A stretch of DNA of 64,000 nucleotides from Escherichia coli (lineage in GTDB: Bacteria > Pseudomonadota > Gammaproteobacteria > Enterobacterales > Enterobacteriaceae): NCBI RefSeq assembly GCF_030384885.1, contig NZ_CP128613.1. One strand, 5' to 3'. Below are positions 1-56,996 of this stretch, piece by piece. The position numbers and the translations under genes are program-made. Positions within the stretch are counted from its first letter, which is position 1, and the number at the start of each line of letters is the position of its first letter. Under the pieces are notes generated by a model. It saw nothing but the letters and a program-made list of their open reading frames with translations. It was not told where the DNA came from and searched no databases.

Positions 1-507
1 GCGTAGAAGTGTGTTGTCCTTCCAGAAATAGTGGTGTGCCAGTGCAGCCGCAGCGTGCAACCCGATGACAAAATATCCCAGATTCGCCAGCGTCTCATGC
101 CACCACTTTAAGCTATCAACCCGTTCGAAATTGGCCTCTGCTGCATAAGGCATTGTCATACCAAACGCAAACCACGGGTTGCCCCGGTTATACATCATCA
201 CCAAACCAATCACTGGCAGCGCAATAAACAGGAGATAAATCACCAAATGTCCCAAATGTGCCAGTCCCGTCATCATCGGTTTTGGTTTAGGTACAATCGG
301 CGGAGTTGGGTATTTAAGCCTTAACAAAAGACGAACAACCATCAGCACGAGAATTGTGATGCCACAGGAAACATGAATCATGTTGATGAGCGGCCGATCG
401 CTACGTGGGAAGAAACCACGAAACTCCATTGCGCAATACGCTGCGATAACCAGCAAAAAGACCAGCCAGTGAATGCCGATTTGTAACCTTGAATATTTAC
501 TTTCCAT
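1..507 (-). CDS. cybB: cytochrome b561, 3' end runs off the window
   Basis: Minus-strand ATG at 507..505; frame stays open to position 1; translation starts MESKYSRLQIGIHWLVF and reaches ...HHYFWKDNTLLR at the window edge. Confidence 0.75.
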   Translation of the reverse strand, partial: MESKYSRLQIGIHWLVFLLVIAAYCAMEFRGFFPRSDRPLINMIHVSCGITILVLMVVRLLLRLKYPTPPIVPKPKPMMTGLAHLGHLVIYLLFIALPVIGLVMMYNRGNPWFAFGMTMPYAAEANFERVDSLKWWHETLANLGYFVIGLHAAAALAHHYFWKDNTLLR

Positions 508-695
508 AACATTTCCTGCTTTAACATAATTTTCCGTTAACATAACGAGCTTTTCTTAAAATTTCATTAAATATTGTTCACCCGTTTTCAGTACGTTACG
601 TTTCACGGCAAGAATGTAGATTGCCCATCCCGCCATCCTGGTCTAAGCCTGGAAAGGATCAATTTTCATCCGAACGTTCCTGACAGGAGAAGACC

Positions 696-1697
696 ATGAG
701 TAAAGTTGGTATTAACGGTTTTGGTCGTATCGGTCGACTGGTGTTGCGTCGATTACTTGAAGTCAAAAGCAACATAGACATTGTCGCTATTAATGATCTC
801 ACTTCCCCAAAAATTCTCGCCTACCTGCTGAAACATGATTCAAACTACGGACCGTTCCCCTGGAGCGTTGATTTTACGGAAGATTCACTTATCGTTGATG
901 GAAAAAGTATCGCGGTTTACGCCGAAAAAGAGGCTAAAAATATTCCATGGAAAGCGAAAGGCGCAGAAATCATTGTCGAATGTACTGGCTTTTATACCTC
1001 CGCCGAGAAATCGCAGGCGCACCTTGATGCTGGTGCGAAGAAGGTGTTGATTTCCGCCCCTGCCGGTGAAATGAAAACCATCGTTTATAACGTCAATGAC
1101 GACACACTGGATGGCAACGACACCATTGTTTCCGTGGCGTCATGCACCACTAACTGTCTTGCACCGATGGCCAAAGCCTTGCACGACAGTTTCGGAATAG
1201 AAGTCGGCACGATGACGACCATTCATGCCTATACTGGCACCCAGTCACTGGTGGATGGCCCGCGAGGTAAAGATCTACGCGCTTCACGTGCAGCGGCAGA
1301 AAATATCATTCCCCACACTACAGGCGCGGCAAAAGCCATTGGTCTGGTGATCCCAGAACTGAGCGGCAAACTGAAAGGTCATGCGCAACGCGTACCCGTG
1401 AAAACAGGTTCGGTGACTGAACTGGTGTCTATTCTTGGAAAAAAAGTGACTGCCGAAGAGGTGAACAACGCGCTTAAAAACGCGACAAACAATAACGAGT
1501 CATTTGGTTATACCGATGAAGAAATAGTCTCTTCTGATATCATTGGCAGCCATTTCGGGTCGGTGTTTGATGCCACGCAAACCGAAATTACCGCCGTGGG
1601 CGATTTACAACTGGTGAAAACGGTCGCCTGGTATGATAACGAATATGGCTTCGTCACGCAGCTTATTCGCACCCTCGAAAAATTCGCTAAACTCTGA
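696..1697 (+). CDS. gapC: glyceraldehyde-3-phosphate dehydrogenase C, intact 333 aa
   Basis: NAD-binding N-terminus [10 protein letters not shown] and active-site SCTTNCLAP; uninterrupted 333-codon ORF. Confidence 0.9.
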
Positions 1698-1738
1698 CGA
1701 GCAAAGGCGGAGGGAAAAGCCTCCGCCTCTTTCACTCA

Positions 1739-3178
1739 TTACGACTGTAAATAAACCACCTGGGTCTGCAGGTATTCATGCAAGCCATGTTTGCCATCTG
1801 CGCCGCCAATACCGGATTTACGCCATCCGGCGTGGAATCCTTGCATAGCTTCGAAGTTTTCACGGTTGATGTAAGTTTCACCAAACTTCAGCCCTTTAAT
1901 AGCTTTCATCGCGACGTTCAGATTTTGGGTATAGAGTGATGAGGTCAGGCCGTAATCACTGTCATTAGCCATTGCGATAGCCTCTTCCAGCGTGTCAAAT
2001 GCGACCACTGGCAGCACCGGGCCAAAGGTTTCCTCGTGCATAATCGACATTTCCTGACGAACATCCAGCAGCAAAGTCGGCGGATAATAATATCCTTTCC
2101 CCTCAACCGCTTTGCCCCCCAACGCTACCCTCGCCCCCTCTTCGACTGCGCGCGCCACTTTTTGCTCGACCCTTTCCAGCGCCGCGGCGTTAATCAACGG
2201 CCCCATCGCAATGTCGTTGCGTTCAGCGGGGTTACCAAATTGAACCGCCTGCATCGCTTCACCCAGCCGATTGACGAACTGATCATAAATGCCTTTCTGT
2301 ACATAAACACGTTCTGCACAGTTACACACTTGCCCACTATTAATGACGCGTGAATCAACGATGGCTTTGACTGCCAGTTCAAGATCGGCATCGTCCATTA
2401 CGATAGCTGGTGCTTTACCACCCAATTCCAGACACACTTTTGTGATATTTTTTGCTGCAGTCGCCATGATCTTTTCACCTGCAGAGACGCTGCCTGTCAT
2501 ACTGACCATTGCGACCTTTGGGTTACCCGCCAGTTCTTGCCCAACGGTTTCACCACGCCCCAGCACAAGGTTAAACACACCGCGTGGAAGGCCTATTTCA
2601 TCGACAATTTTGGCAAAAGCAATCGCATTGTTTGGCGTAAATTCACTGGGTTTAATGACGATGGTATTACCGGTCAAAAGAGCGGGAGCCATTTTGCGGG
2701 CAATGAGGAAGAACGGGAAGTTCCACGGCAGAATGCCGGTAGTCACGCCAAGCGCACGTTTAAAGAGAAGAATATTTTCTCCTGGACGATCGCTTTGAAT
2801 AATCTCACCTTCGTAACGCCGCGCCCACTCTGCCATGTAATCGATATAATCCGCAGTAAATGCCACCTCAACTTCGGCCAGCTGCTGGATCTTGCCCCCT
2901 TCTTCAACAATCAGCGCACTGATTTCACTGGCGCGTTCGCGGATCCCGGCGGCGATTTTGCGCAACCAACTGGCGCGTTCAATGGCAGGCAATGCTTCCC
3001 ATTCTGGCTGCGCGCGCTCTGCGGCGTCGATTGCTTTGCGAGCATCTTCAGCCTGACCATCGGGAATGCGGGAAATCACCGCCTCTGTTGCGGGGTTAAC
3101 CACATCAATCCATGCGTCTCCACGCCAGGTAACAAACTGTCCATCGATATACATAGGATGTTGAACGGGTACTGACAT
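1739..3178 (-). CDS. aldA: lactaldehyde/glycolaldehyde dehydrogenase (NAD-dependent aldehyde dehydrogenase)
   Basis: 479-aa ORF with aldehyde dehydrogenase hallmarks (ELGGKAP, catalytic Cys region GQVCNCAERVYV). Confidence 0.93.
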   Translation of the reverse strand: MSVPVQHPMYIDGQFVTWRGDAWIDVVNPATEAVISRIPDGQAEDARKAIDAAERAQPEWEALPAIERASWLRKIAAGIRERASEISALIVEEGGKIQQLAEVEVAFTADYIDYMAEWARRYEGEIIQSDRPGENILLFKRALGVTTGILPWNFPFFLIARKMAPALLTGNTIVIKPSEFTPNNAIAFAKIVDEIGLPRGVFNLVLGRGETVGQELAGNPKVAMVSMTGSVSAGEKIMATAAKNITKVCLELGGKAPAIVMDDADLELAVKAIVDSRVINSGQVCNCAERVYVQKGIYDQFVNRLGEAMQAVQFGNPAERNDIAMGPLINAAALERVEQKVARAVEEGARVALGGKAVEGKGYYYPPTLLLDVRQEMSIMHEETFGPVLPVVAFDTLEEAIAMANDSDYGLTSSLYTQNLNVAMKAIKGLKFGETYINRENFEAMQGFHAGWRKSGIGGADGKHGLHEYLQTQVVYLQS

Positions 3179-3371
3179 GGGAGACTCCTGTGATTAATGT
3201 GTGTATTTGGTAAATTATTTGTTAATTAATATCAATCATCATAGAGACAGCATCTTGAAAGGACAAATCTGTGAAGAGCTTCATAAAAAGAAGGGTAAAA
3301 GGAATAAAAGGCAGAAAAAAAAGTAAGGAGTCATGCCCGTTTGCAAACAGTTATTCTCAAACGGGCAATTT

Positions 3372-4172
3372 TCAACGTAGCGAACGACTTTCCATCGCCT
3401 CGATAAGCACAGCATCGTGTTTCAGCGTTTGCCATGCCTGGGTGACTTCTGCAGGAAAATCAACGTGAACGATAAAATCTCGCCCACGGGGACCATAGCC
3501 ATCACTATCATCGCGTAAACGTGGCAGCTCGCCAGTGAGTAGTGAGAGATAACGCTCAACCGGCCATAATCCTTCTAACTGGTTAATAAAGATTACACTG
3601 TCTTCGTTGTTTCCTAGCTGAGGAACGAATCCGGGATAACTTAACCAGCGAGGTGCATCTGGATTGTCCCCGGTCATACGGCGGAACGTCGCCATCGTGC
3701 GCCGCTGCATGGTGGGGTCCTGAACAACGATAGCCGTATGAACTCTTTCTACGGCCTGATTCAATAGCGCGATGCTAAAGCGTGCGTTTTCACCGCAGTT
3801 TGTTGACTGGTCTTCAATCCAGATTTTTTCATGCGGAATGTGCCAGAACTGATGAGCGATATCCGCCAGGATGGTAGCTTCTGCTCTGCCAGTGGTGCGG
3901 ATAGTGTTGTAGTGCGGATGCTGTGCGATGGCGCTATACAAAAAAGTTGTCGAGTGACCGATACCACCACTAATCAGTAGAGGAATTTGCTGATCGCGGG
4001 CAATCTTACATGCCGCATCGATAGTCGGTATAACCGCATTGCCTGCAAGGATCACGCAATCGGCCTGATACGGCACCTCACCGGAGAAATCATCCTGCGC
4101 CAGCCACTGACCGATAACATTTATGGCATCTATGGTTGCCGGCGAAAGCGTCGGAAACGGGGTAATGTTCAT
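3372..4172 (-). CDS. ydcF: DUF218-family protein YdcF
   Basis: 266-aa ORF in the syntenic position between aldA and hrpA. Confidence 0.8.
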
Positions 4173-4443
4173 GGTTCCTCCTTATCGTTCCCTTAAGAAT
4201 ACTGCGTGAGATAATAATGAGAAGCGGAGCACTCTGAAAGGAGGAAGTCGTATTTCCTTAACCGCCACTCCGCAAGCCTGACATATCTTTTAAGGAAATG
4301 CTGTAGATAAACATTATTCATCTTGCAGCAGAGAATTGTATTTTTCTGAATTCCTGAATTTTTGCCCTTACCGTTTTAGAATTAATAAAAAACCCGGCGC
4401 TAAATGCTTACCGGGTTTTAGATTTATCAGGCAAATAGCAGCG

Positions 4444-7400
4444 TTAACCGCTAATCTGCTCCATCGCCTGTAGAATACGCTTATCTGAAATCGGATAAGG
4501 TGTACCGAGTTGTTGGGCAAAATAGCTGACGCGCAACTCCTCTATCATCCAGCGTATCTCTTTCACGTCTTCATCCTCACGACGTGCAGGCGGCAGTTTG
4601 TTGATCCATTGCTGCCACGCCTGCTGGACGTTTTCAACTTTCAGCATCTGAGCACGGTCACGGTGCGGGTCAACCGCCAGTTTTTCCAGACGCTTTTCAA
4701 TCGCCTGCAAATAACGCAGCGTGTCGCCCAGGCGTTTGAAGCCATTACCAGTGACAAAACCGCGATACACCAGCCCACTCATCTGCGCTTTAATGTCAGA
4801 AAGCCCCAGCGCCATGGTCATATCCACCCGCCCTTTCAGGCGTTTGTTGATATTGAACACCGCCGTAAGGATTTGCTCTACCTGCTTCGCAATATCCACC
4901 ACCGTGTCGTTCAGTTCAGCGCGGACTTTTTCATGAAGCGCAGCAAAGCCCTCTTCCGTCCAGACCGGGCCGCCCGCCTCATCAATCAACTTATCAACAC
5001 CGCAGGAGATGCAGTCGTCAATGAGATCCAGCACTTTACCGTACGGGTTAAAGTAGAGACCAAGCTTCGCTTTGTTCGGCAGTTTCTCATGCAGATATTT
5101 AATTGGCGACGGAATATTCAGCAGCAGCAAGCGACGCAAACCACGCCACATAGCCTGCTGTTGTTCCTGCGGGTTATCAAAAAGCTTAATCGCTACGCTG
5201 TCACGCTCATCCACCAGCGCAGGCCAGGCCTTCACTTTGTAGTTGCCACGTTTCTGCTCGTAGTGATCCGGTAAATTACCGAAGCTCCAGATATGTAACC
5301 CGCTTTGCTCAATACCATCATCGGCAACGGCGGAAAGCGTTTCCTGCACTTTGCCTTTCAGGGCGTCTTTCAGATCCTGTAATGAGCGCCCTTCTTTTAG
5401 CTTCTTATTTTTGTCATCCACCACACGGAAGGTGATTTTCAGGTGATCGGGCACCTGATCCCAGTGCCAGTCTTCGCGGTCAACGGTAACGCCGGTCATC
5501 CGCCGTAGCTCGCGCTCAAGGCTGTCGAGCAACGGCAGTTCCAGCGGCGTGACGCGACCTAAAAACGCTTCGGCGTAGTTTGGCGCGGGCACAAAATTAC
5601 GCCGTACCGGTTTCGGCAACGATTTGATTAGAGCAATCACCAGTTCACGGCGCAGGCCGGGGATCTGCCACTCAAACCCGCTTTCCTCAACCTGGTTAAG
5701 TAATGGCAGCGGAATATGCACGGTCACACCGTCAGCATCCGCCCCCGGCTCAAACTGATAGCTTAAACGCAGCTTGAGATTGCCCTGATGCCAGAAGTTC
5801 GGGTAATCCAGCTTGCTGATTTTTTCCGCCCCTTCTTTGATCAACATGCTCTTTTCAAAGTTGAGCAAATCAGGTGTTTCGCGGCTGACTTTTTTCCACC
5901 AACTATCAAAGTGACGTGCAGAGATCACATCATGGCTGATGCGCTGGTCGTAAAACTCAAACAACGTTTCGTCATCCACCAGAATATCGCGGCGACGTGA
6001 TTTGTGTTCCAGTTCTTCCACTTCTGCCCGTAGTTTCAGGTTTTCACGGAAGAATGCGTGACGCGTCTGCCAGTCACCTTCCACCAGCGCGTGGCGAATA
6101 AAAAGTTCACGACACAGCGCCGGATCAATCTGGCTGTAGTTGACCTTACGCGCAGCAACAATCGGCAACCCGTAAACGGTGACTTTTTCAGTTGCCATCA
6201 CCGCGCCCTGCGCCCGTTCCCAGTGCGGTTCGCTGTAGGAGCGTTTAATCAAATGCTGGGCAACTGGCTCTACCCATTCTGGATCGATGCGTGCCGCAAT
6301 GCGCCCCCACAGGCGGCTGGTTTCTACCAGTTCCGCCACCATTGCCCATTTCGGCGGCTTCTTGAATAAACCAGAACCGGGGAAGATGGAGAAACGCGCG
6401 TTACGTGCGCCGGTATATTCCTGTTTATCGGCATCTTTCATCCCGATATGCGAAAGCAAACCGGTCAGTAAGGCGATGTGAATTTCGCGATACTCCGCCG
6501 GTTCGCTGTTAACCGGAATGCCAAGTTCTTTCACCACCTGGCGCAACTGGGTGTAGATGTCCTGCCATTCGCGCACGCGCAGATAGTTAAGGTAATCGGT
6601 ACGGCAAAGGCGACGGAAGGCGTTTGAAGAGAGCGCCTTTTGCTGCTCGCCGAGATAATTCCACAGATTTACAAACGCCAGGAAGTCGGATTCTTTATCG
6701 TGGAAGCGACGATGTTTTTCGTCCGATGCCTGCTGCTTGTCCATTGGCCGCTCACGCGGGTCCTGAATAGAGAGCGCGGAAGTGATAATCATCGCCTCAC
6801 GCACGCAGCCATGTTTCTGCGCTTCCAGCACCATTCGCGCCAGACGAGGATCGACTGGCAGTTGCGAGAGCTGGCGACCGAGCGGCGTCAGTTTATAGGC
6901 GCTGGCCTGTTCATCAGTGGTGATCGCGCCCAGCTCTTCGAGCAGACGCACGCCATCCTGGATATTGCGTTTATCCGGCGCTTCTACAAACGGGAACGCA
7001 GCGATATCGCCCAGCCCCAGCGCGGTCATCTGCAAAATAACCGAGGCCAGGTTGGTACGCAGAATCTCCGGATCGGTAAACTCCGGGCGCGAGAGGAAAT
7101 CGTCTTCGGAATAAAGACGAATGCAGATCCCTTCTGACACACGACCACAGCGGCCTTTACGCTGATTAGCTGAAGCCTGCGAAATGGGCTCAATCGGCAA
7201 ACGCTGCACTTTGGTGCGATAGCTGTAGCGGCTGATACGCGCCGTACCTGGGTCGATAACGTATTTAATCCCCGGCACGGTCAGCGACGTTTCCGCGACG
7301 TTAGTCGCCAGCACAATGCGCCGTCCGCTGTGCGACTGGAAGACGCGGTTCTGCTCGCTGTTCGAAAGCCGTGCATAAAGCGGAAGAATTTCCGTATGGC

Positions 7401-8346
7401 GTAAGTTCAGCTTGTTCAGCGCATCGGCGGTATCGCGAATTTCTCGCTCGCCGCTCATAAAAATCAGAATGTCGCCGGGGCTTTCCTGGCTCAGTTCGTC
7501 TACGGCGTCAAAAATCGCCTGCAACTGGTCGCGCTCGGTGTCATCAGCTTCTTCAACAATCGGGCGATAGCGCACCTCCACCGGATAGGTACGACCGGAG
7601 ACTTCGATAATCGGCGCATTATTAAAGTGGCGCGAAAAGCGTTCCGGGTCGATAGTCGCGGAAGTGATAATGATTTTTAGGTCAGGACGCCGCGGCAGCA
7701 ACTCTTTCAAATAACCGAGGAGAAAATCGATATTCAGGCTACGTTCGTGCGCTTCGTCAATAATGATAGTGTCGTACTGCATCAGCAGGCGGTCTTGCTG
7801 GATCTCTGCCAGCAGGATACCGTCGGTCATCAGTTTGACCATCGTGTTATCACTGACGTGATCGCTGAATCGGACTTTATACCCGATGCAACCGCCCGGC
7901 TCCGTTTTCAGCTCTTCCGCGATCCGGTTCGCCACCGTTCGTGCCGCCAGACGACGCGGCTGGGTATGGCCGATCAGCCCTTTAATCCCGCGCCCCAGCT
8001 CCATACAGATTTTCGGTAGCTGAGTCGTTTTACCGGAACCCGTTTCCCCGGCGACGATCACCACCTGGTGATCACGGATTGCTTCGAGAATGTCCTGCTT
8101 TTTCTGACTAACCGGCAAATTGTCTGGATAAGTGATTTCCGGTCGTGCTGCTTCACGCAGCAGGACTTTCCCTGCCGCCTGGTCAATCTCTTTCGCCATC
8201 TCCTGGAAAATGGCCTGTTGTGCATCAGGATTTTTAACCTTCTTCACACCATGCAGACGGCGGGAAAAACGCAGTCTGTCACGCAGCATCAGCGAATCCA
8301 ACCGTTGCTGCAAGGCCGTAAAGGTCAATTTTTGTTGTTCTGTCAT
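4444..8346 (-). CDS. hrpA: ATP-dependent RNA helicase HrpA (DEAH-box)
   Basis: 1300-aa ORF; Walker A GETGSGKTTQLP, DEAH box IIIDEAHERS, motifs SAT and QRKGRCGR. Confidence 0.95.
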   Translation of the reverse strand: MTEQQKLTFTALQQRLDSLMLRDRLRFSRRLHGVKKVKNPDAQQAIFQEMAKEIDQAAGKVLLREAARPEITYPDNLPVSQKKQDILEAIRDHQVVIVAGETGSGKTTQLPKICMELGRGIKGLIGHTQPRRLAARTVANRIAEELKTEPGGCIGYKVRFSDHVSDNTMVKLMTDGILLAEIQQDRLLMQYDTIIIDEAHERSLNIDFLLGYLKELLPRRPDLKIIITSATIDPERFSRHFNNAPIIEVSGRTYPVEVRYRPIVEEADDTERDQLQAIFDAVDELSQESPGDILIFMSGEREIRDTADALNKLNLRHTEILPLYARLSNSEQNRVFQSHSGRRIVLATNVAETSLTVPGIKYVIDPGTARISRYSYRTKVQRLPIEPISQASANQRKGRCGRVSEGICIRLYSEDDFLSRPEFTDPEILRTNLASVILQMTALGLGDIAAFPFVEAPDKRNIQDGVRLLEELGAITTDEQASAYKLTPLGRQLSQLPVDPRLARMVLEAQKHGCVREAMIITSALSIQDPRERPMDKQQASDEKHRRFHDKESDFLAFVNLWNYLGEQQKALSSNAFRRLCRTDYLNYLRVREWQDIYTQLRQVVKELGIPVNSEPAEYREIHIALLTGLLSHIGMKDADKQEYTGARNARFSIFPGSGLFKKPPKWAMVAELVETSRLWGRIAARIDPEWVEPVAQHLIKRSYSEPHWERAQGAVMATEKVTVYGLPIVAARKVNYSQIDPALCRELFIRHALVEGDWQTRHAFFRENLKLRAEVEELEHKSRRRDILVDDETLFEFYDQRISHDVISARHFDSWWKKVSRETPDLLNFEKSMLIKEGAEKISKLDYPNFWHQGNLKLRLSYQFEPGADADGVTVHIPLPLLNQVEESGFEWQIPGLRRELVIALIKSLPKPVRRNFVPAPNYAEAFLGRVTPLELPLLDSLERELRRMTGVTVDREDWHWDQVPDHLKITFRVVDDKNKKLKEGRSLQDLKDALKGKVQETLSAVADDGIEQSGLHIWSFGNLPDHYEQKRGNYKVKAWPALVDERDSVAIKLFDNPQEQQQAMWRGLRRLLLLNIPSPIKYLHEKLPNKAKLGLYFNPYGKVLDLIDDCISCGVDKLIDEAGGPVWTEEGFAALHEKVRAELNDTVVDIAKQVEQILTAVFNINKRLKGRVDMTMALGLSDIKAQMSGLVYRGFVTGNGFKRLGDTLRYLQAIEKRLEKLAVDPHRDRAQMLKVENVQQAWQQWINKLPPARREDEDVKEIRWMIEELRVSYFAQQLGTPYPISDKRILQAMEQISG

Positions 8347-8537
8347 AACGTTAGTGGGCAGCAGGCTGCCTGATTAATTTTCTTTTAAATGATAGATATA
8401 GAGTACCACATCGCGGCTTTCTATGCGTTGTTCAATAAATTCGAACATAGGCTTCGATTTATTGCGCTATCTCTGTGGCAGGATTGTGAATAAAGTGTCA
8501 ACAAGCAACGGGGCATCGCCCATTCAAACATCTATAA

Positions 8538-9152
<615 letters not shown>

Positions 9153-9205
9153 CCGGACACTATTTTGATGTGGACTGTAGATATTCAGTCCACATCTCAA
9201 TCCAC

Positions 9206-12269
<3,064 letters not shown>

Positions 12270-12284
12270 TTTCTCTATTTTCCT

Positions 12285-13181
12285 TCAGTAACAGCAGTAG
12301 CGAATAAAATAAAAAAATACCGGAGCGGTGAAAATTAATGAGTCAATCCTGTCAAGGAGTCCGCCATGTCCTGGTAATAGTTTTCCGCTATCTTTAACAC
12401 CAATATCTCGTTTGATGGCTGACATCACTACATCGCCGCAAAAACCACTAATACCAATTAACAAACCCGCTAATAATGCCTGTAATGTATCTAGCGGTGT
12501 CAGCAACGGTCCAATAATCAGTGACGCAATCATGGTGGTGATTACGCCGCCCATCAGACCTTCCAATGTTTTTCCCGGGCTGACTTTAGGGACCACTTTT
12601 CTTCTGCCGCAGGATTTTCCCCATAAATACTGTGCAATATCGTTTGACTCGGTTAATGCCAAAAGAAATAACACCAGTAACGCCCCGCCCTGGATATTTG
12701 TGGTTGGCAACATTAATAACCAGGCGGCATGACTCAAGGCGAAAACGGTCATTATCCAGCCCCAAAAAATGGCGCTCACGGTATGCAGAAAACCGGAGGG
12801 GTCACCCACAAAAACTCGCCAGGTGGCTAATATCAGAAACCCAGCCAAAGGTATAAATAACAGAAACAGCTCAAAGCAATTAAAACCGATAAGCAAATAG
12901 TTAAGAGGAATAACCCAATATAACCAACGCGGAAAATGTACGAATACAAGCGTACAATATTCTTTCAATGCCATAAAACTTATCAGCGCAAAAAACGTCA
13001 ATGTCATCAAGCGTGGACCTGAAATCACTAGTGAAAAACAAATAACGATGCTCCACCAGGTACGAATACGTAATGTAACTTCATCTCCTTTTCTCTCCGG
13101 TAACCGCCATACCAGAAAACGGTTTATCAGCGTTGCTAAAATTAACAACACGAAAAGTATTGCCAGAGATTTTTCCAGCAT
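12285..13181 (-). CDS. ynbB: CDP-diglyceride synthetase-like membrane protein YnbB
   Basis: 298-aa polytopic membrane ORF; its start overlaps the ynbA stop (operon arrangement). Confidence 0.85.
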   Translation of the reverse strand: MLEKSLAILFVLLILATLINRFLVWRLPERKGDEVTLRIRTWWSIVICFSLVISGPRLMTLTFFALISFMALKEYCTLVFVHFPRWLYWVIPLNYLLIGFNCFELFLLFIPLAGFLILATWRVFVGDPSGFLHTVSAIFWGWIMTVFALSHAAWLLMLPTTNIQGGALLVLFLLALTESNDIAQYLWGKSCGRRKVVPKVSPGKTLEGLMGGVITTMIASLIIGPLLTPLDTLQALLAGLLIGISGFCGDVVMSAIKRDIGVKDSGKLLPGHGGLLDRIDSLIFTAPVFFYFIRYCCY

Positions 13182-13786
13182 TACTTTTCAGCGCTCATAA
13201 GGAGCACGCTTCGACAACGATTAATCGCAGTCCAGAGAAGCAGAATTGAAGCAATGCTCCATAAAAGATTATTCCATTGCATCCACTGGGGATAAATGGC
13301 AACGGCCAGCCCCCACAAACCAAATATTAACGCACGATCGCTTTTGCCAAATGGACCGGCATAACTGCGAATACCGTTAATCGTCTGCGCGAGTAAACCG
13401 CAAAACTCAGTCAATATGGTGCAAAATAACATGAGTATTACGAGTGATGCGTTACTTTCCGGTAAAAATAAAAACGGTAAATAAAGCGCAATATCGGAAA
13501 TAACATCGCCAGTTTCATTCAAAATCGCCCCCAGACGTGTTTGCTGATTGCACTCACGCGCCATCATGCCATCCAGCGCATTGAGTGCCATACGGACAAA
13601 AAGCACGATGGGCAATAGCAAAAAGAGGATGGGTCGTGCCACCAACATCAACAGCAATCCGATAAGAAGAGAAAGCGCCAGTGCCGCAAGAGTGATGTGA
13701 TTCGCTGTAACGTGGTGCTTATAAAGCCAAAACATCGTCGGCCTTAACAGCGACTGAAAGAGCGGTTTTATCTGGTAGAGCGTCAT
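13181..13786 (-). CDS. ynbA: CDP-alcohol phosphatidyltransferase family protein YnbA
   Basis: Membrane ORF with CDP-alcohol phosphatidyltransferase-like motif (DGMMARE...G...ETGD); the open frame extends two codons further, to 13792. Confidence 0.85.
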   Translation of the reverse strand: MTLYQIKPLFQSLLRPTMFWLYKHHVTANHITLAALALSLLIGLLLMLVARPILFLLLPIVLFVRMALNALDGMMARECNQQTRLGAILNETGDVISDIALYLPFLFLPESNASLVILMLFCTILTEFCGLLAQTINGIRSYAGPFGKSDRALIFGLWGLAVAIYPQWMQWNNLLWSIASILLLWTAINRCRSVLLMSAEK

Positions 13787-13956
13787 TATCAATCCTTGAT
13801 AATTCGGTTTGCGCTATGGTGCATCAATTCCCCTGACGGAGATATCGCAACACGCCGCTTCATTAAAAATTCAGAATATATCAAGGTATTGGGGACTCAC
13901 TGCCAGGAATGATTATCCCCAATTAATCAAATGGTTAAGAAAAATTACGTTGTGGA

Positions 13957-34771: not shown

Positions 34772-35707
34772 ATGTCGCAAAATCAAGAAATTAGTAAGAA
34801 AGAACAATACAATCTGAACAAATTACAAAAACGTCTGCGTCGTAACGTGGGCGAAGCCATTGCTGACTTCAATATGATTGAAGAAGGCGATCGCATCATG
34901 GTTTGCCTCTCCGGGGGTAAAGACAGCTATACCATGCTGGAGATTCTGCGCAATTTGCAGCAAAGCGCGCCAATCAATTTTTCGCTGGTGGCTGTTAACC
35001 TCGATCAAAAGCAACCGGGCTTCCCGGAACACGTTCTGCCCGAGTATCTTGAAAAGCTGGGCATTGAGTACAAGATTGTGGAAGAGAACACTTACGGTAT
35101 CGTGAAAGAGAAGATTCCGGAGGGCAAAACCACTTGCTCACTGTGTTCTCGTCTTCGTCGCGGAATTCTTTACCGTACCGCAACGGAACTGGGAGCGACG
35201 AAGATCGCGCTGGGTCACCATCGTGACGATATCCTGCAAACGTTGTTCTTAAATATGTTCTACGGCGGCAAGATGAAAGGTATGCCTCCGAAACTGATGA
35301 GCGATGATGGCAAACATATTGTGATTCGTCCGCTGGCCTACTGCCGCGAGAAAGATATTCAGCGCTTTGCCGATGCAAAAGCGTTCCCGATTATTCCGTG
35401 CAACCTGTGCGGTTCACAACCTAACCTGCAACGTCAGGTGATTGCTGACATGTTGCGTGACTGGGATAAACGTTATCCGGGGCGTATCGAGACGATGTTC
35501 AGCGCGATGCAGAATGTGGTGCCGTCGCATCTGTGCGATACCAACCTGTTCGATTTCAAAGGCATTACCCACGGTTCTGAAGTGGTTAACGGGGGTGATC
35601 TGGCGTTTGATCGCGAAGAGATCCCTCTACAACCGGCGGGTTGGCAGCCTGAAGAAGATGAAAATCAGTTGGATGAGTTACGACTGAATGTGGTTGAAGT
35701 GAAATAA
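34772..35707 (+). CDS. ttcA: tRNA 2-thiocytidine(32) synthetase TtcA, prophage-free allele
   Basis: 311-aa ORF with PP-loop SGGKDS and Cys motifs; the N-terminus [14 protein letters not shown] differs from the recalled K-12 Rac-lysogen form MQENQQITKKEQYN. Confidence 0.9.
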
Positions 35708-49599: not shown

Positions 49600-50631
49600 A
49601 TGATCGCTGAACTGTTTACAAATAATGCGCTTAATCTGGTCATTATTTTCGGTAGCTGCGCAGCATTGATTCTGATGAGCTTTTGGTTTCGCCGCGGAAA
49701 TCGTAAAAGAAAAGGATTTTTATTCCATGCGGTGCAATTTTTAATCTACACCATAATTATCAGTGCTGTTGGTAGCATCATTAATTATGTTATAGAAAAC
49801 TACAAACTCCAATTTATCACTCCAGGCGTTATCGATTTTATCTGTACGTCCCTGATTGCGGTTATTCTGACGATTAAGTTATTTCTGCTGATTAATCAGT
49901 TTGAAAAACAGCAGATTAAAAAAGGTCGCGATATCACCAGTGCGCGGATTATGTCGCGTATCATCAAAATCACCATTATTGTGGTACTTGTTTTGCTTTA
50001 TGGCGAACATTTCGGTATGAGCCTTTCTGGCTTGTTGACCTTTGGTGGTATTGGTGGTCTGGCTGTCGGTATGGCCGGTAAAGATATTTTGAGTAACTTC
50101 TTTTCCGGGATTATGCTCTATTTCGACCGTCCTTTTAGTATTGGCGACTGGATCCGTTCACCGGACAGAAATATCGAAGGTACAGTAGCGGAAATTGGCT
50201 GGCGAATTACCAAAATTACGACCTTTGATAATCGTCCGTTATACGTCCCGAACTCGCTGTTTTCGTCTATCAGCGTAGAAAACCCGGGGCGAATGACCAA
50301 CCGACGTATTACCACGACAATCGGTTTACGTTATGAGGATGCGGCAAAAGTGGGAGCCATTGTCGAAGCCGTACGTGAGATGCTTAAAAATCACCCAGCC
50401 ATCGACCAGCGACAAACCTTACTGGTTTATTTCAACCAGTTTGCTGACTCGTCATTGAATATTATGGTTTATTGCTTTACCAAAACCACAGTATGGGCTG
50501 AATGGCTTGCCGCCCAGCAGGATGTTTATTTGAAGATTATCGATATTGTACAGTCACACGGCGCGGATTTCGCGTTCCCAAGCCAGACGCTGTATATGGA
50601 TAACATTACACCACCAGACCAGGGTCGTTAA
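49600..50631 (+). CDS. ynaI: MscS-family mechanosensitive channel YnaI
   Basis: 343-aa ORF; N-terminal TM helices followed by an MscS-like beta domain. Confidence 0.9.
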
Positions 50632-50676
50632 TTCAGACATCACTGGCGTTACCCACAAGGGTAACGCCAGTTCACA

Positions 50677-52290
50677 TCAATGTTTCACAATATACATAGT
50701 CCGGCTATACGCCACATCTTCCGGGTTATTAATGGGATAACCTTTCAGCCACGGCTTGATTAATCGTCCATTGGTATATTGATAAATTGGTGCAATCGGT
50801 GCTTGCTCCATGAGGATTTTTTCTGCCGCGTTGTAATCGGCATTACGCGCTTTAACGGTATTTTCCGTCGATGCCTGGGCCAAAACTTTGTCGTAGGCCG
50901 GGTTGTTAAAACGTGAAATGTTCCCTGAATGCGTTGACGTTAATAATGTCAGGAAGGTGGAGGGTTCATTATAATCCCCCACCCACGAGGCGCGGATAAC
51001 ATCAAAATTACCTGTATTACGACTATCGATATAGGTTTTCCATTCCTGATTTTGCAGTTTGACATCTACACCAAGGTTCTTTTTCCACATCGATGCCACA
51101 GCAATCGCAATTTTTTGATGGTTTTCTGAAGTATTATACAAAAGCGTCAGCTTCAGCGGTTTTTGCGGACCATAACCGGCTGCGCTCAACAAAGTTTTTG
51201 CCTGCGCATTCAGTTCTTCCTGACTCATTTGTTCAAACGGCGAAGGCTCCGGCGTGAATCCGGCAGTAACATCTGGCGTAAAATGCCACGCTGGTTTTTC
51301 GCCCGTCCCCAACACTTTTTCGGTCATCAGGCGGCGATCTATCGTCATACTTAATGCCAGACGAACGCGCTGATCTGCCGCCGGCCCTTTTTGCGTGTTA
51401 AACGCATAATAATAGGTCCCGAGCTGCGGCGGTGTATAAACCTGCCCCGGAATATCCTTCAACAGCTTCTGATACATATTTTTGGGGAAGGATTCGGTGA
51501 TATCAATATCCCCCGCGAGATAACGCTTAGTGGCTGCGGATTCCTGATTAATTGGCAGGAAGGTCACTTTTTGCAACACCGTTTTGGCGTTATCCCAATA
51601 ATGAGTATTTGGCACCACGACCAGTTTTTCATTGACTACACGCTCTTTAAGAACATAAGCGCCATTGCCGACCAGATTTCCGGGTTTCGTCCACTCTTTC
51701 CCGCTTTCTACGTTAGCTTTTTGCACCGGGAAGAAGGCAAAATTGGCTGTTAAATTCACAAACCACGGCAACGGTTTATCAAGCTGGATTTTCAAAGTAC
51801 GGGCATCAACCGCGGTGACGCCTAGCTGATCAGGCGTAGCTTTACCATCAATAATCGCCTGTGCGTTGTTGATTCCCGCCAGCGCGGCAAACCAGGCAAA
51901 CGGCGACAACGTTTTTGGGTCAACCAGACGTTGCCAGCTGTAGACAAAATCCTGTGCCGTTACCGGTGTGCCATCCGCCCATTTTGCGTTATCGCGCAGG
52001 GTGAAAGTCCAGATACGGTTGTCATTACTTTTCCACTGAGTCGCAACGCCGGGGACAATCTCCCCTTTCTCGTTCTGATTCACCAGTCCTTCAAAAAGAT
52101 CGCGAATGACCTGAATCTCTGGCAGACCCACGGCTTTAGCGGGATCCAGCGACGCAGGCTCATCTTTAATATGGCGCACCAGCTCCTGCTTCTCTGCCAG
52201 TACTGTGCCGCTCGGAACTTCTGCAGCATACGAAAGAGAAATGCTGCTGACCAACAGCGCACAACACGTGACTGAAACAGAGTGCTTCAT
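50677..52290 (-). CDS. mppA: periplasmic murein tripeptide-binding protein
   Basis: 537-aa ORF with signal peptide; family-5 solute-binding protein, OppA paralogue. Confidence 0.93.
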   Translation of the reverse strand: MKHSVSVTCCALLVSSISLSYAAEVPSGTVLAEKQELVRHIKDEPASLDPAKAVGLPEIQVIRDLFEGLVNQNEKGEIVPGVATQWKSNDNRIWTFTLRDNAKWADGTPVTAQDFVYSWQRLVDPKTLSPFAWFAALAGINNAQAIIDGKATPDQLGVTAVDARTLKIQLDKPLPWFVNLTANFAFFPVQKANVESGKEWTKPGNLVGNGAYVLKERVVNEKLVVVPNTHYWDNAKTVLQKVTFLPINQESAATKRYLAGDIDITESFPKNMYQKLLKDIPGQVYTPPQLGTYYYAFNTQKGPAADQRVRLALSMTIDRRLMTEKVLGTGEKPAWHFTPDVTAGFTPEPSPFEQMSQEELNAQAKTLLSAAGYGPQKPLKLTLLYNTSENHQKIAIAVASMWKKNLGVDVKLQNQEWKTYIDSRNTGNFDVIRASWVGDYNEPSTFLTLLTSTHSGNISRFNNPAYDKVLAQASTENTVKARNADYNAAEKILMEQAPIAPIYQYTNGRLIKPWLKGYPINNPEDVAYSRTMYIVKH

Positions 52291-52472
52291 AAGTTACCCT
52301 CAAACCTGCGTTAATAATCATGCGTAATTATTTGTTTCGCCTTAAAGAAATGCAAACAACTTCCGGCAAAAAAGTGATACAAGATCGATAACATAGCGTT
52401 GAAGAAAAGGATTTGATAATCCGCAAAATTTGCACAACACTGCCTGTAATACTTCCTGAACCAGAGACGATC

Positions 52473-53201
52473 ATGACCGTAACTCGCCCACGCGCCGAAC
52501 GCGGCGCATTTCCGCCCGGTACAGAACATTACGGACGTTCATTATTGGGCGCGCCTTTGATCTGGTTTCCGGCCCCAGCCGCCAGTCACGAAAGTGGTTT
52601 GATTCTGGCTGGCACCCACGGTGATGAAAACTCTTCGGTCGTGACCCTCTCCTGTGCTCTGCGGACATTGACACCGTCTTTGCGCCGCCATCATGTGGTG
52701 CTGTGTGTGAATCCTGACGGCTGCCAGTTAGGGTTACGGGCCAATGCTAATGGCGTGGATTTAAATAGAAACTTTCCGGCAGCAAACTGGAAGGAAGGTG
52801 AAACGGTTTATCGCTGGAACAGCGCCGCTGAAGAACGTGATGTCGTTTTACTGACAGGTGACAAACCTGGCTCCGAACCTGAAACTCAGGCGCTGTGCCA
52901 GCTTATACATCGCATTCAACCTGCCTGGGTGGTCTCATTCCACGATCCACTGGCCTGTATTGAAGACCCCAGACACAGCGAATTAGGTGAATGGCTGGCC
53001 CAGGCGTTTGAATTGCCACTGGTCACCAGCGTCGGTTATGAAACGCCTGGCTCTTTCGGCAGTTGGTGTGCGGATCTCAACCTGCATTGCATCACCGCAG
53101 AGTTTCCGCCCATCTCCTCCGACGAAGCCAGCGAAAAATACCTCTTTGCGATGGCTAACTTGCTGCGCTGGCATCCTAAAGATGCAATGCGCCCGTCGTG
53201 A
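52473..53201 (+). CDS. mpaA: murein peptide amidase A (M14 zinc carboxypeptidase family)
   Basis: 242-aa ORF starting MTVTRPRAERG; contains HGDE (AGTHGDENSS). Confidence 0.88.
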   Translation: MTVTRPRAERGAFPPGTEHYGRSLLGAPLIWFPAPAASHESGLILAGTHGDENSSVVTLSCALRTLTPSLRRHHVVLCVNPDGCQLGLRANANGVDLNRNFPAANWKEGETVYRWNSAAEERDVVLLTGDKPGSEPETQALCQLIHRIQPAWVVSFHDPLACIEDPRHSELGEWLAQAFELPLVTSVGYETPGSFGSWCADLNLHCITAEFPPISSDEASEKYLFAMANLLRWHPKDAMRPS

Positions 53202-54141
53202 ATTGAAGCGCCGGTTCCACATCTACCGCCAGCCAGGTCGGTCCGTCAAGATCAGCAAAACTGACCTGCGGCACCAGCGGTAAAGCGGCGTTAATGGCAC
53301 GAGAGGTACACAACATGCAGCCCAGCATCAGACTGAAACCTTGTGCACGTGCTTCAGTCGCCAGCGCCAGCGCTTCCGTCAGGCCACCCGTTTTATCGAG
53401 CTTAATGTTAACCATCTCATAGCGCCCTTTCAGCGCCTTCAGATTGCTACGAGTATGACAACTTTCATCTGCACAAATCGGTAACGGATGAATAAAATTC
53501 TCCAACGCCGCATCGTCCTGCGCAGGAAGCGGTTGTTCAAGCATCGCAACGCCTAAATCCGCCAATAGCTGGCAACGCGCCGCCAACCCTTCTGCACGCC
53601 AGGATTCATTTGCATCAACGATTAGCGTCGCATCGGGTACAGCCGTGCGAATTGCTACCATCCGCTCACTGATAAGATGGTTATCCAGCTTCACTTTCAG
53701 TAATTTCGCGCCTGCCTGCCAGAGTGTTGATGCACTATTGGCCATCTGATCAGGCGTACCGATGACTACCGTCTGGGCAGTGGTGACTGTCTCGGGAAGC
53801 GTTATGCCGATCAAATCAGCCAGCGATTGCTGCTGTTTTCGCGCCGCCAGATCCCACAATGCACAATCCAGCGCATTACGTGCTGCGCCGGCAGGGAGAA
53901 TTTTTTGCAACTCCTCCCGTGTAAGCCCTTTCTCTAATTGCGGCACGACGCTCATAATTTGCGCCATTACCGAGGCATCACTTTCTCCATAACGCGGATA
54001 CGGCGTGCATTCACCGGTGCCTTTAATACCTTCTTCTTCCAGTTCAACCACCACCACGCGCGCTTCACTACGACTTCCCCGAGCAATCACAAACGGGGTA
54101 TGTAAGGGCCAGGCTTCCTCAAATACCTTAACGGTTCTCAT
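53176..54141 (-). CDS. ycjG: L-Ala-D/L-Glu epimerase (enolase superfamily)
   Basis: 321-aa ORF starting MRTVKVFEEAWPLH; the open frame extends 14 codons further upstream, to 54183. Confidence 0.88.
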   Translation of the reverse strand: MRTVKVFEEAWPLHTPFVIARGSRSEARVVVVELEEEGIKGTGECTPYPRYGESDASVMAQIMSVVPQLEKGLTREELQKILPAGAARNALDCALWDLAARKQQQSLADLIGITLPETVTTAQTVVIGTPDQMANSASTLWQAGAKLLKVKLDNHLISERMVAIRTAVPDATLIVDANESWRAEGLAARCQLLADLGVAMLEQPLPAQDDAALENFIHPLPICADESCHTRSNLKALKGRYEMVNIKLDKTGGLTEALALATEARAQGFSLMLGCMLCTSRAINAALPLVPQVSFADLDGPTWLAVDVEPALQFTTGALHL

Positions 54142-54259
54142 CTTTACTCCTTGTTGTCGCGGTGGTCTGCGGATTAAGCGCAAATAGCGTTTGCTGTGTT
54201 ATTGACAGTTAGCATAAACTAGGTGTGACGTTAACTATATGTAAACAGGAAAGATAATC

Positions 54260-54763
54260 ATGTCACAAACCGTTCATTTCCAGGGCAACCCGGTTACAGT
54301 CGCCAATTCCATCCCGCAGGCGGGTAGCAAAGCGCAGACTTTTACTCTCGTGGCAAAAGATCTGTCTGACGTCACCCTCGGTCAGTTTGCGGGTAAACGC
54401 AAAGTGCTGAACATTTTCCCGAGTATTGATACCGGTGTTTGCGCCGCATCAGTACGTAAGTTTAACCAACTGGCAACCGAGATCGACAACACCGTTGTGC
54501 TGTGTATCTCTGCCGATCTGCCGTTCGCCCAGTCTCGTTTCTGCGGCGCAGAAGGTCTGAACAACGTTATCACCCTCTCCACTTTCCGTAACGCTGAATT
54601 CCTGCAAGCCTACGGTGTGGCAATTGCTGATGGCCCACTGAAAGGTCTGGCAGCGCGTGCCGTTGTGGTTATCGATGAAAATGACAATGTGATTTTCAGC
54701 CAGCTGGTTGATGAAATCACCACCGAGCCGGATTACGAAGCAGCTCTGGCTGTACTGCGCTAA
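54260..54763 (+). CDS. tpx: thiol peroxidase
   Basis: 167-aa [20 protein letters not shown]... with peroxidatic Cys (SIDTGVC). Confidence 0.95.
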
Positions 54764-54778
54764 ACAACTGTGCCGTTC

Positions 54779-54818
54779 ACTGAATCACCACCGGTGAACG
54801 GCAGTTTTTGATCTACCA
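54779..54818 (+). terminator. tpx intrinsic terminator
   Basis: Hairpin gccgttcac...gtgaacggc followed by AGTTTTTG. Confidence 0.7.
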
Positions 54819-54907
54819 GTCCCATTATTTTCCAGAGTTCCTGCCACTATTCCCCCTAACCGTTGTGCATTAAGATTGCTCTTTGCCATTATTGGCCCAG
54901 CGGAGTG

Positions 54908-56959
54908 ATGACTATTATGGATGATAAACAAATTACGGTCTGGCTTAAACACAATTGCTGTTCAACGGACATTCCTGCCATTGCCGAGGCACTAACGAAC
55001 CATGCAGAATGGCTTTTAGAGCTAGCGCCAGATCCTATTGAACAAGGTTGTTCATGTTTACCGCCGACAGCTGCAGCCGGTATTTTTCTTGGCGCAGCGG
55101 CGATGGTTCACTGCGGCGAGGCTAGTGGTGCAGAAACCTGGCTCGAAGCAGCCATTACTGATTACCATTTCTTTAATCCAAATGGATATAGTTCATGGAG
55201 AGGCAGTACGCCTGTTTTTACAGCATTATCGCGTTACCCGGCATTAAGAATGGTGTTATTTAACGCCGCTTGCGCAATGGAAGACTGGAATAAAGCATCC
55301 GCTGTTCTTGAATCGCTTTTCCATGCCAGCGATGTAACGGAAGATAACCCTGTCGCCCCCAATTTTACCCCTTATGCGCTGAAAGCGTTTATCGCGGATT
55401 ACCACCCGTTAGGGCCTGCTTATTATGATGAAACCTGGTTGCTGGCAAAACAAGCGTGGTTAATTAATGCGGGCGTTCTGGATGAGCGAACCTGTAATAC
55501 CTGGAAGCAATATACCCGCCATTTGCGCCATTTGATCCATAATGCACAGTTTTCCGATGCGATCTCTTTTGTACGCAGTAAAAAAGAACCATTAAATCAT
55601 ATCCATACCTACTCAGACTTTTATCTCTATGCGATTGGTTTATTTTCTTCTACTGATCAGCTAAGTGAAGCGCTAACCTGGGTAAAACAATTAATCCGCA
55701 ACAATGATGGTCATTTCCATGATCTTTTCGTTTCAACTGGCGCAAAGCGCCGAATAAAGCCTGAACTTAGTACCTTGCTGAATAATCTCTTGTACAGCGC
55801 AGAGTTTCAGGCGTTGCAGGATAAATATCTCACCGTCGGACATGATGTTGTGCATTCTGGTCCCTTCATGTCACTTTATGAAAAGGTTCTTGGCGGTAAG
55901 TCCCGAAAGCGCTGCGCGATTAGTCGAAAATTAATCTCACCCGGCGAAGCGGTTTATGAATATCGTCAGCTGGATAGTGTGGAATATATTGCAGCGAAAG
56001 CGGCCTTTCAGACATCTGAGCTAAATAATATCGCCCACCGGCATCATAATGATAGTTATCAGTGGCATGAATTTGCCGTCCAATGGCCTCGTCGGGGTTC
56101 ACTTTCTCACCCAGATATTGCCCGTTATTTGTTTGAGCGCCAGGAAGGAAAATGCTTTGATGCCGCAGAGTTTATACAACTGATTGCGGAACCGTTTGTC
56201 TTTCCGATGCGTTTCATATGGGTTGCCGGGTTGTCCTTTGAATTACATCAGTATCCGGATGCCTATTTCGTAAATGACAATATGGCGGGTGAATTTGTTA
56301 ATCTCTGCTGGATGGCTATGAAATGCGGACATGCTGGCGACATTTTCAAACAACTGGCCCACGAGCCGCATGACGTTGCTGACCCTATTTACGCCATGCT
56401 CGCCACGTTTGACCGCGCTGATTGCCGTAGCGCCGCCGCCGCGCACTTTGGACAACCGGAACTACCGGAAATAATGGCACTGGCTTTCAGTTCGAGGTTA
56501 TCGCTCGACAGCGTCCTTACCATCGCTGAGTTTGGTAAAAATCAGCCGCGATTTTCACATGCGCTAGCAACGGCCCTCCTGCGTTACAACCTGCACATCT
56601 ACTCAAACTATATGCCGCAGGTTAACTGGTACCTTCAGGGGCTGGAACACTATGCTTTGGCAAAAGGCGGTCAACTTTTAAATTTCTTTGTGCATATTCC
56701 AGAACAAATTCCCGTTCTGGCGACCATGCTGGAACATGGCGTATTAGTGCGTGGGATCGGTGAAGGTGCCTATGATGGTTATGATAATTCAGCAAATTCA
56801 TTTCATCATGCCGCCGTGATGCACTGCCTCACGCACGCGCCGGAAAAAGTCCGCTACTGGATGGAAACACCCTGGATTCAGAACTATTTAGTGAATGCGC
56901 CGCTGCGTCAAACGGCGCGCCATGTGGAAGCCTGGCATAAAAAGTTTGGCATCAAATGA
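54908..56959 (+). CDS. uncharacterised ~680-aa protein encoded between tpx and tyrR; no family recognised
   Basis: Uninterrupted frame 54863..56959 (TTG at 54863; likely ATG at 54908 or 54917, with GGAG at 54902). No signal peptide, TM segment or Walker A seen; His/Cys-rich patches (HNCCSTD, GCSCLPP, RHLRHLIHN, HRHHNDSYQWHEF, KCGHAGD). Confidence 0.7.
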   Translation: MTIMDDKQITVWLKHNCCSTDIPAIAEALTNHAEWLLELAPDPIEQGCSCLPPTAAAGIFLGAAAMVHCGEASGAETWLEAAITDYHFFNPNGYSSWRGSTPVFTALSRYPALRMVLFNAACAMEDWNKASAVLESLFHASDVTEDNPVAPNFTPYALKAFIADYHPLGPAYYDETWLLAKQAWLINAGVLDERTCNTWKQYTRHLRHLIHNAQFSDAISFVRSKKEPLNHIHTYSDFYLYAIGLFSSTDQLSEALTWVKQLIRNNDGHFHDLFVSTGAKRRIKPELSTLLNNLLYSAEFQALQDKYLTVGHDVVHSGPFMSLYEKVLGGKSRKRCAISRKLISPGEAVYEYRQLDSVEYIAAKAAFQTSELNNIAHRHHNDSYQWHEFAVQWPRRGSLSHPDIARYLFERQEGKCFDAAEFIQLIAEPFVFPMRFIWVAGLSFELHQYPDAYFVNDNMAGEFVNLCWMAMKCGHAGDIFKQLAHEPHDVADPIYAMLATFDRADCRSAAAAHFGQPELPEIMALAFSSRLSLDSVLTIAEFGKNQPRFSHALATALLRYNLHIYSNYMPQVNWYLQGLEHYALAKGGQLLNFFVHIPEQIPVLATMLEHGVLVRGIGEGAYDGYDNSANSFHHAAVMHCLTHAPEKVRYWMETPWIQNYLVNAPLRQTARHVEAWHKKFGIK

Positions 56960-56967
56960 ACGTTGCC

Positions 56968-56990
56968 GCTGCGCCTGAACGGCGCAGCCA
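56968..56990. terminator. bidirectional hairpin between the convergent unknown ORF and tyrR
   Basis: gctgcgcc tgaac ggcgcagc perfect inverted repeat. Confidence 0.5.
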
Positions 56991-56996
56991 GCACAA

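Follow-up and report, generated by a model that had tools for sequence, protein, structure and literature searches.

A 182-bp mppA-mpaA control region in Escherichia coli as the probable unoccupied form of the pgrR-ycjY insertion site

Introduction

In Escherichia coli K-12 the murein-peptide genes mppA and mpaA are held apart by a spacer of 2628 bp, in which pgrR lies on the strand of mppA (minus) and ycjY and a pseudogene fragment of ymjC lie on the strand of mpaA (plus). PgrR has been reported to repress ycjY-ymjDC-mpaA, ycjG and ycjXF-tyrR in K-12 (table in PMC5934670, where the operon is written ycjY-ymfDC-mpaA, sic, for ymjDC; PMC3946193 gives ycjY-ymjDC). In the stretch of DNA analyzed here, 64,000 nucleotides of E. 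coli contig NZ_CP128613.1 (hereafter the window), the two genes are direct neighbors. The original prediction, made from the sequence alone, described the K-12 arrangement correctly and concluded that the regulation of mppA, mpaA and ycjG must differ in this strain. The question is whether the window strain has lost a regulator or whether K-12 has gained one.

Results

The spacer between mppA and mpaA extends over 52291..52472 (182 bp), from the ATG of mppA (52288-52290, minus strand) to the ATG of mpaA (52473-52475, plus strand), and the predicted divergent arrangement with about 180 bp between the starts was thus confirmed. Both genes are intact. The product of mppA (50677..52290, minus strand) is a murein tripeptide periplasmic binding protein of 537 aa, 99% identical in amino acid sequence to MppA of K-12 and with an SBP_bac_5 domain at 3.6e-94. 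The murein tripeptide amidase of 242 aa encoded by mpaA (52473..53201, plus strand) matches the NCBIfam equivalog NF007897 at 479 bits (cut-off 157) as well as Peptidase_M14; neither ycjY nor ymjC precedes the gene on its strand, only the 182 bp of the spacer. The gene ycjG (53176..54141, minus strand; L-Ala-D/L-Glu epimerase, 321 aa; NCBIfam NF011708 at 676 bits, cut-off 343) converges on mpaA, and so all three orthologs of the enterobacterial cluster for murein-tripeptide uptake and catabolism are present in the window. They are followed by tpx (54260..54763, plus strand; thiol peroxidase), by an ORF of 680 aa described below, and by tyrR (56997..58538, minus strand), which was placed by locus mapping and by the RefSeq annotation of E. 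coli 2013C-4282. This strain is the closest complete genome, with 99.8% identity over 50600-57100 (6.5 kb) and 100% over the junction; its RefSeq-annotated mppA is 100% identical to that of the window, and its RefSeq gene order (ynaI, mppA, mpaA, ycjG, tpx, hypothetical protein, tyrR) matches as well. An Rfam scan of the 182-bp spacer at permissive thresholds returned no match, so it contains no known sRNA or riboswitch.

The predicted lack of ycjY and pgrR was borne out. No homolog of note of PgrR or YcjY was found in the 64-kb window, where a LysR paralog at ~41.6-42.0 kb is only 26% identical. A search for pgrR elsewhere in the genome and an alignment to K-12 had been proposed as checks. 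On the chromosome of 2013C-4282 a chimeric query joining the 680-aa ORF to K-12 pgrR gave a single match, to the ORF, and pgrR is thus missing from this chromosome. In the base-level alignment, window 52000..52377 aligns to the mppA side of the K-12 locus and window 52348..52800 to its mpaA side, so that the 30 bases at 52348..52377 align to both. K-12 has kept the ancestral spacer in two parts, 95-99% identical to the window: 87 bp on the mppA side, which contain one copy of this 30-bp repeat, and 125 bp on the mpaA side (99% identical). Since there is one repeat copy in the window and two around the K-12 block, the window spacer represents the single-repeat, unoccupied form of the site in which K-12 carries the pgrR-ycjY island. 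From the PgrR-controlled ycjY-ymjDC-mpaA operon of K-12 the window has the intact mpaA, and neither pgrR nor ycjY.

Two further differences from K-12 were seen at a distance from this site. The Rac prophage of K-12 (~23 kb, uspF/ynaM to ttcA) is missing, and its K-12 flanks are joined directly at window ~34779..34821. Window 1..23580 had no megablast match to the K-12 segment before ydbL (feaR, feaB, tynA and the end of paaZ; ~6.8 kb compared), and over this segment the gene content upstream of ydbL appears to be different.

The single repeat copy of the window (52348..52377) reads AAATGCAAACAACTTCCGGCAAAAAAGTGA. In K-12 the island is flanked by 30-bp direct repeats of the form AAATGCAAACAACTTCC[GG/AT]CAAAAAAGTGA, the left copy having AT where GG stands; the window copy is of the GG form. 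One copy was found in the window and in every empty allele sampled, two around the cargo in K-12, NU14 and Escherichia sp. E1V33, and the insertion point falls directly after 52377. We considered that the repeat might be the end of the inserted cassette and rejected this, because it was absent when looked for near the cassette copies of Klebsiella and Kluyvera, and because the 30-bp sequence is conserved in the spacer of all genera examined. For the same reasons the repeat is native spacer DNA and represents duplicated target. The cargo itself occurs in unrelated contexts (Klebsiella, Kluyvera) and with discordant divergence (E1V33); no integrase or transposase is annotated in the E. coli versions of the island examined.

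The cassette comprises a LysR regulator that faces two alpha/beta hydrolases and an NmrA-like reductase. Since ymjD is missing in NU14, and ymjD together with most of ymjC in K-12, the block is visibly decaying through internal deletions in E. coli. Homologs of PgrR with 87-89% identity are found in Klebsiella, Raoultella, Kluyvera, Enterobacter, Citrobacter and some Salmonella. The same four genes in the same order as in the E. coli island are present on plasmid-like contigs of Klebsiella variicola, flanked by PsiB, SSB and TacA/TacT (plasmid leading region), and on the chromosome of Kluyvera cryocrescens, where an integrase fragment adjoins them. Murein-peptide genes are not nearby in either case, and the flanks are unrelated to the E. 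coli site; the similarity to the E. coli block (79% nucleotide identity) begins exactly at the stop codon of pgrR and ends shortly after that of ymjC. In the distant Escherichia sp. E1V33 the island is ~97-99% identical to that of K-12 over most of its length, whereas its flanks are 85-90% identical; the cassette has thus passed from one Escherichia lineage to another, which indicates a recent transfer between species. The E1V33 block (3478..5877 of the extracted locus) is of the K-12 type, with pgrR-ycjY-ymjC' already truncated, and the divergence falls sharply at the right repeat. On this comparative evidence the cassette is a self-contained, mobile unit of a regulator plus enzymes. A second, more distant unit was noticed a few kb from the PgrR-type cassette on a plasmid-like contig of the Klebsiella variicola type (7696..11606), consisting of a LysR regulator facing an alpha/beta hydrolase, an NmrA-like reductase and an OYE-family oxidoreductase; it suggests that a family of regulator-plus-hydrolase cassettes may exist. 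In the literature searched we found no account of the cassette as inserted DNA.

Among 5426 complete E. coli genomes the contiguous empty junction was found in 172 (~3%), and the arrangement is hence not specific to this strain. A match to the pgrR-ycjY block was missing anywhere in 182 genomes of the same set, and 8 lack the locus altogether; these counts agree with empty-site genomes having no pgrR elsewhere. Across 23.6-60 kb the window is ~4% diverged from each of K-12, NU14 (B2) and O55:H7. As these three differ from one another by ~1-3% at the locus, the window lineage would seem to branch outside the main E. coli radiation, possibly as a cryptic clade.

Three empties from ordinary E. 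coli (CREC-544, FDAARGOS_497 and HCM-24C-3) are mosaics that resemble K-12 through mppA and 30 bp into the spacer and are 98-100% identical to the window from the repeat rightwards, over ~250-700 bp. With a chimeric query composed of the right end of the island and a window-like mpaA flank, one occupied genome, GF131, matched at 99.2%; the other full-length matches listed reached at most 98.2%. Because of the mosaic empties and this result, the empty allele appears to behave as one haplotype that is exchanged by recombination, with its breakpoint at the 30-bp repeat, rather than as the product of repeated fresh deletions.

For the ancestral state we relied on an MpaA scan of one genome per bacterial species, which gave 80 loci (79 evaluable), with the neighbors mapped by tblastn. 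In 76 of the 79 evaluable species mppA and mpaA are directly divergent, with a spacer of 138-316 bp, mostly 182-185 bp. These species include E. albertii, E. whittamii, three further non-coli Escherichia, Citrobacter, Enterobacter, Klebsiella, Raoultella, Kluyvera, Leclercia, Lelliottia, Kosakonia and others; the spacer length of 182 bp is the same in E. albertii, E. whittamii and other Escherichia, and the site of Escherichia sp. MOD1-EC7003 is likewise empty. The three exceptions are Escherichia sp. E1V33 with the pgrR-ycjY block and Salmonella enterica subsp. arizonae and diarizonae with cdtABC. Since short, directly divergent loci prevail to this extent, the compact spacer is on the evidence of its distribution ancestral for the family, and the K-12 arrangement derived. 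The window has this arrangement, with 182 bp and with the alignment columns that are invariant across 22 taxa.

The spacer was aligned across 22 genera/species and searched for promoters by a sigma-70 consensus scan. The only promoter-like site returned by the scan is a predicted sigma-70 promoter of mppA (52327..52356, minus strand), with the -10 hexamer AATAAT at 52327-52332 and the -35 hexamer TTGCAT at 52350-52355 (or TTTGCA). The -35 hexamer TTGCAT falls inside the 30-bp repeat, and the blocks containing the predicted hexamers are invariant or nearly so in the alignment. No promoter of mpaA was called by the scan within the 182 bp. The invariant columns upstream of mpaA (52413..52443, plus strand), for which a regulatory function may be assumed, belong to two blocks, ATTTGATA at 52411-52418 with a candidate -35 TTGATA (52413-52418), and TTTGCACAACACTGC at 52429-52443 with a candidate weak -10 AACACT (52436-52441) or a regulator site. 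These blocks could form a weak TTGATA-17-AACACT promoter, serve as a regulator site, or do both. Two other candidates were discarded, a sigma-54 site at TTTGCACAACACTGC, in which the GC-to-GC spacing is one base short (by eye), and a CRP-like half-site near 52374, the sequence of which other genera do not conserve.

The original prediction had named the gene between tpx and tyrR, given as 54908..56959, as a second difference of the strain. The ORF is real, although it is a separate polymorphism, and RefSeq starts it at 54917 (54917..56959, plus strand, 680 aa), three codons after the in-frame ATG at 54908. It was brought in by an insertion of ~2.2 kb (~54758..56998), which takes the place of the terminator spacer shared by tpx and tyrR in K-12 and of the last two tpx codons. 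The Lys-Ala codons of K-12 are replaced by a single Arg codon (...VLR* vs ...VLKA*; 167 vs 168 aa), and the insertion brings hairpins of its own, with a new hairpin terminator after tpx at ~54775-54809. Roughly 32 of the 5426 complete E. coli genomes carry the ORF, in two alleles. Almost all of the ~16 genomes with the 97-99.5% allele are without a pgrR match, while those listed among the ~16 with the 93% allele have a second match, presumably pgrR; in one of them, 2013C-4974, the full pgrR island is present and the ORF sits at the same site. Because other E. coli carry the ORF together with the full island, its insertion is independent of the pgrR polymorphism, and rarer. Many genomes of Enterobacter, Klebsiella, Lelliottia and others have 0.6-1.5 kb more than the usual length between tpx and tyrR, so that this spacer, too, seems to be a variable spot across the family.

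Homology assigns no function to the 680-aa protein, which had no match in Pfam, NCBIfam or PADLOC. A word-indexed search found 8 clusters of homologs, and an exhaustive HMMER search 119 at 50% identity among 1.84 billion proteins; a few members of the family have N-terminal ankyrin repeats, and a distant homolog was found among small Sel1/TPR proteins. The AlphaFold model was poor with a 9-sequence alignment (pLDDT 60); with 38 sequences (pLDDT 88, pTM 0.88) it was confident and shows helical repeats in the N-terminal region, a small beta region around the conserved Cys333 and a helical C-terminal half. PDB searches with this model gave generic TPR matches only, to part of it. Alongside the Salmonella homolog, the island in which it lies contains a TsiV-type T6SS immunity gene, DUF4034, DUF1266 and IS remnants. 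A kinship of the ORF to the neighboring DUF4034 protein was considered and dropped after a negative hhalign comparison. Taken by analogy, these hints might tie the ORF to the world of polymorphic toxins and their immunity proteins.

Discussion

Our analysis makes it very probable that the mppA-mpaA region of the window is in its ancestral, unoccupied state, that a cassette was inserted in the lineage leading to most E. coli, and that mpaA of the window strain is expressed from its native promoter. According to this reconstruction, mppA and mpaA would be transcribed divergently from one compact 182-bp control region, which would carry, besides the mppA promoter (-35 TTGCAT, -10 AATAAT), the pair of conserved blocks on the mpaA side. 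The lineage to most E. coli would have received an accessory cassette directly after the position equivalent to 52377, made up of pgrR, ycjY-ymjD-ymjC facing it, and a remnant of queH. Later decay would have left ycjY-ymjC of it in B2 strains and, in K-12, ycjY-ymjC', next to pgrR. It is because the insertion duplicated 30 bp of the spacer that K-12 mppA would have retained its -35 region and the upstream A-tract, and mpaA ~125 bp of native upstream DNA. K-12 would then have an additional layer of control, read-through into mpaA from the PgrR-repressed ycjY promoter, and the window strain, with no PgrR and no such read-through, would express mpaA from the native promoter only.

A secondary loss of the cassette, by precise removal between the 30-bp repeats or by homologous replacement from a cassette-free lineage, would produce a similar picture, and we regard it as unlikely. 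The 28-30-bp direct repeats of the occupied allele are able to mediate precise excision that leaves one copy, and the single copy of the window fits such a loss, as it fits a site that was never occupied. The cassette is already decaying by internal deletions in E. coli, and recombination around the site is active, as the empties of CREC-544, FDAARGOS_497 and HCM-24C-3, mosaic at the repeat, demonstrate. The island in the distant E1V33 means that presence and absence do not cleanly match relatedness, a point that counts against our preferred explanation. However, the spacer and both flanks of the window are uniformly ~4% diverged from the occupied E. coli alleles, with no mosaic junction, and its repeat copy has the GG form found in the outgroups. 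The nearest relatives of the window, and Escherichia sp. MOD1-EC7003, are also empty. Furthermore, the empty allele goes closely together with a single right-flank haplotype (3/3 sampled E. coli empties), GF131 being the one close occupied match with a window-like right flank among those listed, and this association argues against recurrent de novo deletion.

That a rearrangement specific to this strain rewired the regulation of mppA, mpaA and ycjG in a peculiar way, as one might conclude from the absence of PgrR and the targets reported for it in the PMC5934670 table, is very improbable. The arrangement is common to the 172 complete E. coli genomes and to nearly every Enterobacteriaceae species sampled, the conserved blocks of the spacer are those found family-wide, and K-12 has the same promoter-proximal DNA on both sides. 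Still less credence, in fact next to none, can be given to an assembly artefact in which the cassette collapsed out between two 30-bp repeats. Apart from the fact that occupied alleles contain short repeats, nothing speaks for it; 30 bp are far too short for an assembly collapse, the same junction is seen in independent complete genomes (100% in 2013C-4282, 99.7% in four others), and pgrR is missing from the whole 2013C-4282 chromosome.

The never-occupied form remains our preferred reading, and the difference between the window and K-12 is an ordinary presence/absence polymorphism of accessory genes in which K-12, like most E. coli, has the occupied allele. The empty, PgrR-free state is the normal one at this locus in Enterobacteriaceae. 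The view that the strain departs from the norm has to be reversed, since the compact spacer is found in 76/79 evaluable species and 172/5426 E. coli and it is K-12 that is derived. The expectation of altered regulation holds in part. PgrR-dependent control cannot operate in the window strain because pgrR and ycjY are absent here and on the closest complete chromosome, and the reported effects of PgrR on ycjG and ycjXF-tyrR cannot apply. Since K-12 keeps both halves of the ancestral spacer, the core promoters of mppA and mpaA are probably the same in both strains, and the polarity of the comparison is the opposite of that assumed. An effect of PgrR loss on mppA, which had also been expected, finds no support in the PMC5934670 table, where mppA is not among the listed PgrR targets. 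The control of K-12 mpaA by PgrR may well be exerted by read-through from the ycjY promoter.

PgrR might be a local regulator belonging to a mobile hydrolase/reductase cassette, rather than one dedicated to peptidoglycan recycling; the cassette would have landed by chance in the mppA-mpaA control region of an E. coli ancestor, the control of mpaA being a by-product of read-through from the ycjY promoter; we consider the chances for and against this idea to be evenly balanced. If it is true, the window lineage and 3% of E. coli constitute natural PgrR-null controls. The cassette that encodes this regulator, whose name refers to peptidoglycan recycling, is accessory; it is missing here from most Enterobacteriaceae, and 3% of E. 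coli lack it altogether. The reference strain K-12 is atypical at the mppA-mpaA locus, which corrects the direction of the comparison; PgrR-based models of murein-peptide catabolism in K-12 should not be carried over to other enterobacteria, and natural PgrR-free strains can be used for comparison.

Compared with the K-12 locus mppA-pgrR-ycjY-ymjC'-mpaA (b1329-b1326), the window has the flanking genes ynaI, mppA, mpaA, ycjG, tpx and tyrR in the same order and orientation. It differs by the 2416 bp of cassette and the second 30-bp repeat copy, both of which are present in K-12 and missing here, and without PgrR and YcjY a transcript from ycjY into mpaA is impossible. The clusters of E. albertii, E. 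whittamii, Citrobacter, Enterobacter, Klebsiella and other Enterobacteriaceae show directly divergent mppA and mpaA, a spacer of ~180-190 bp and ycjG converging on mpaA, as the window does. They share with it the conserved blocks GTAATTATTTGTTTC, AAATGCAAA, AAAnTTGA, ATTTGAT and TTTGCACAACACTGC and differ from it in sequence divergence only, a structural difference not having been found. A different case is the mppA-cdtCBA-mpaA locus of Salmonella arizonae and diarizonae, where ~3 kb of foreign DNA occupy the same spacer (3449..5677 of one of the extracted loci). Its cargo, unlike the E. coli island, is a cytolethal distending toxin operon (CdtA, CdtB and CdtC by Pfam); the mpaA-proximal conserved blocks are kept, whereas those near mppA have been replaced, and a 30-bp duplication could not be detected. 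The comparison shows the mppA-mpaA spacer to be a recurrent landing place for foreign DNA, used by a toxin operon in Salmonella and by the pgrR-ycjY cassette in E. coli.
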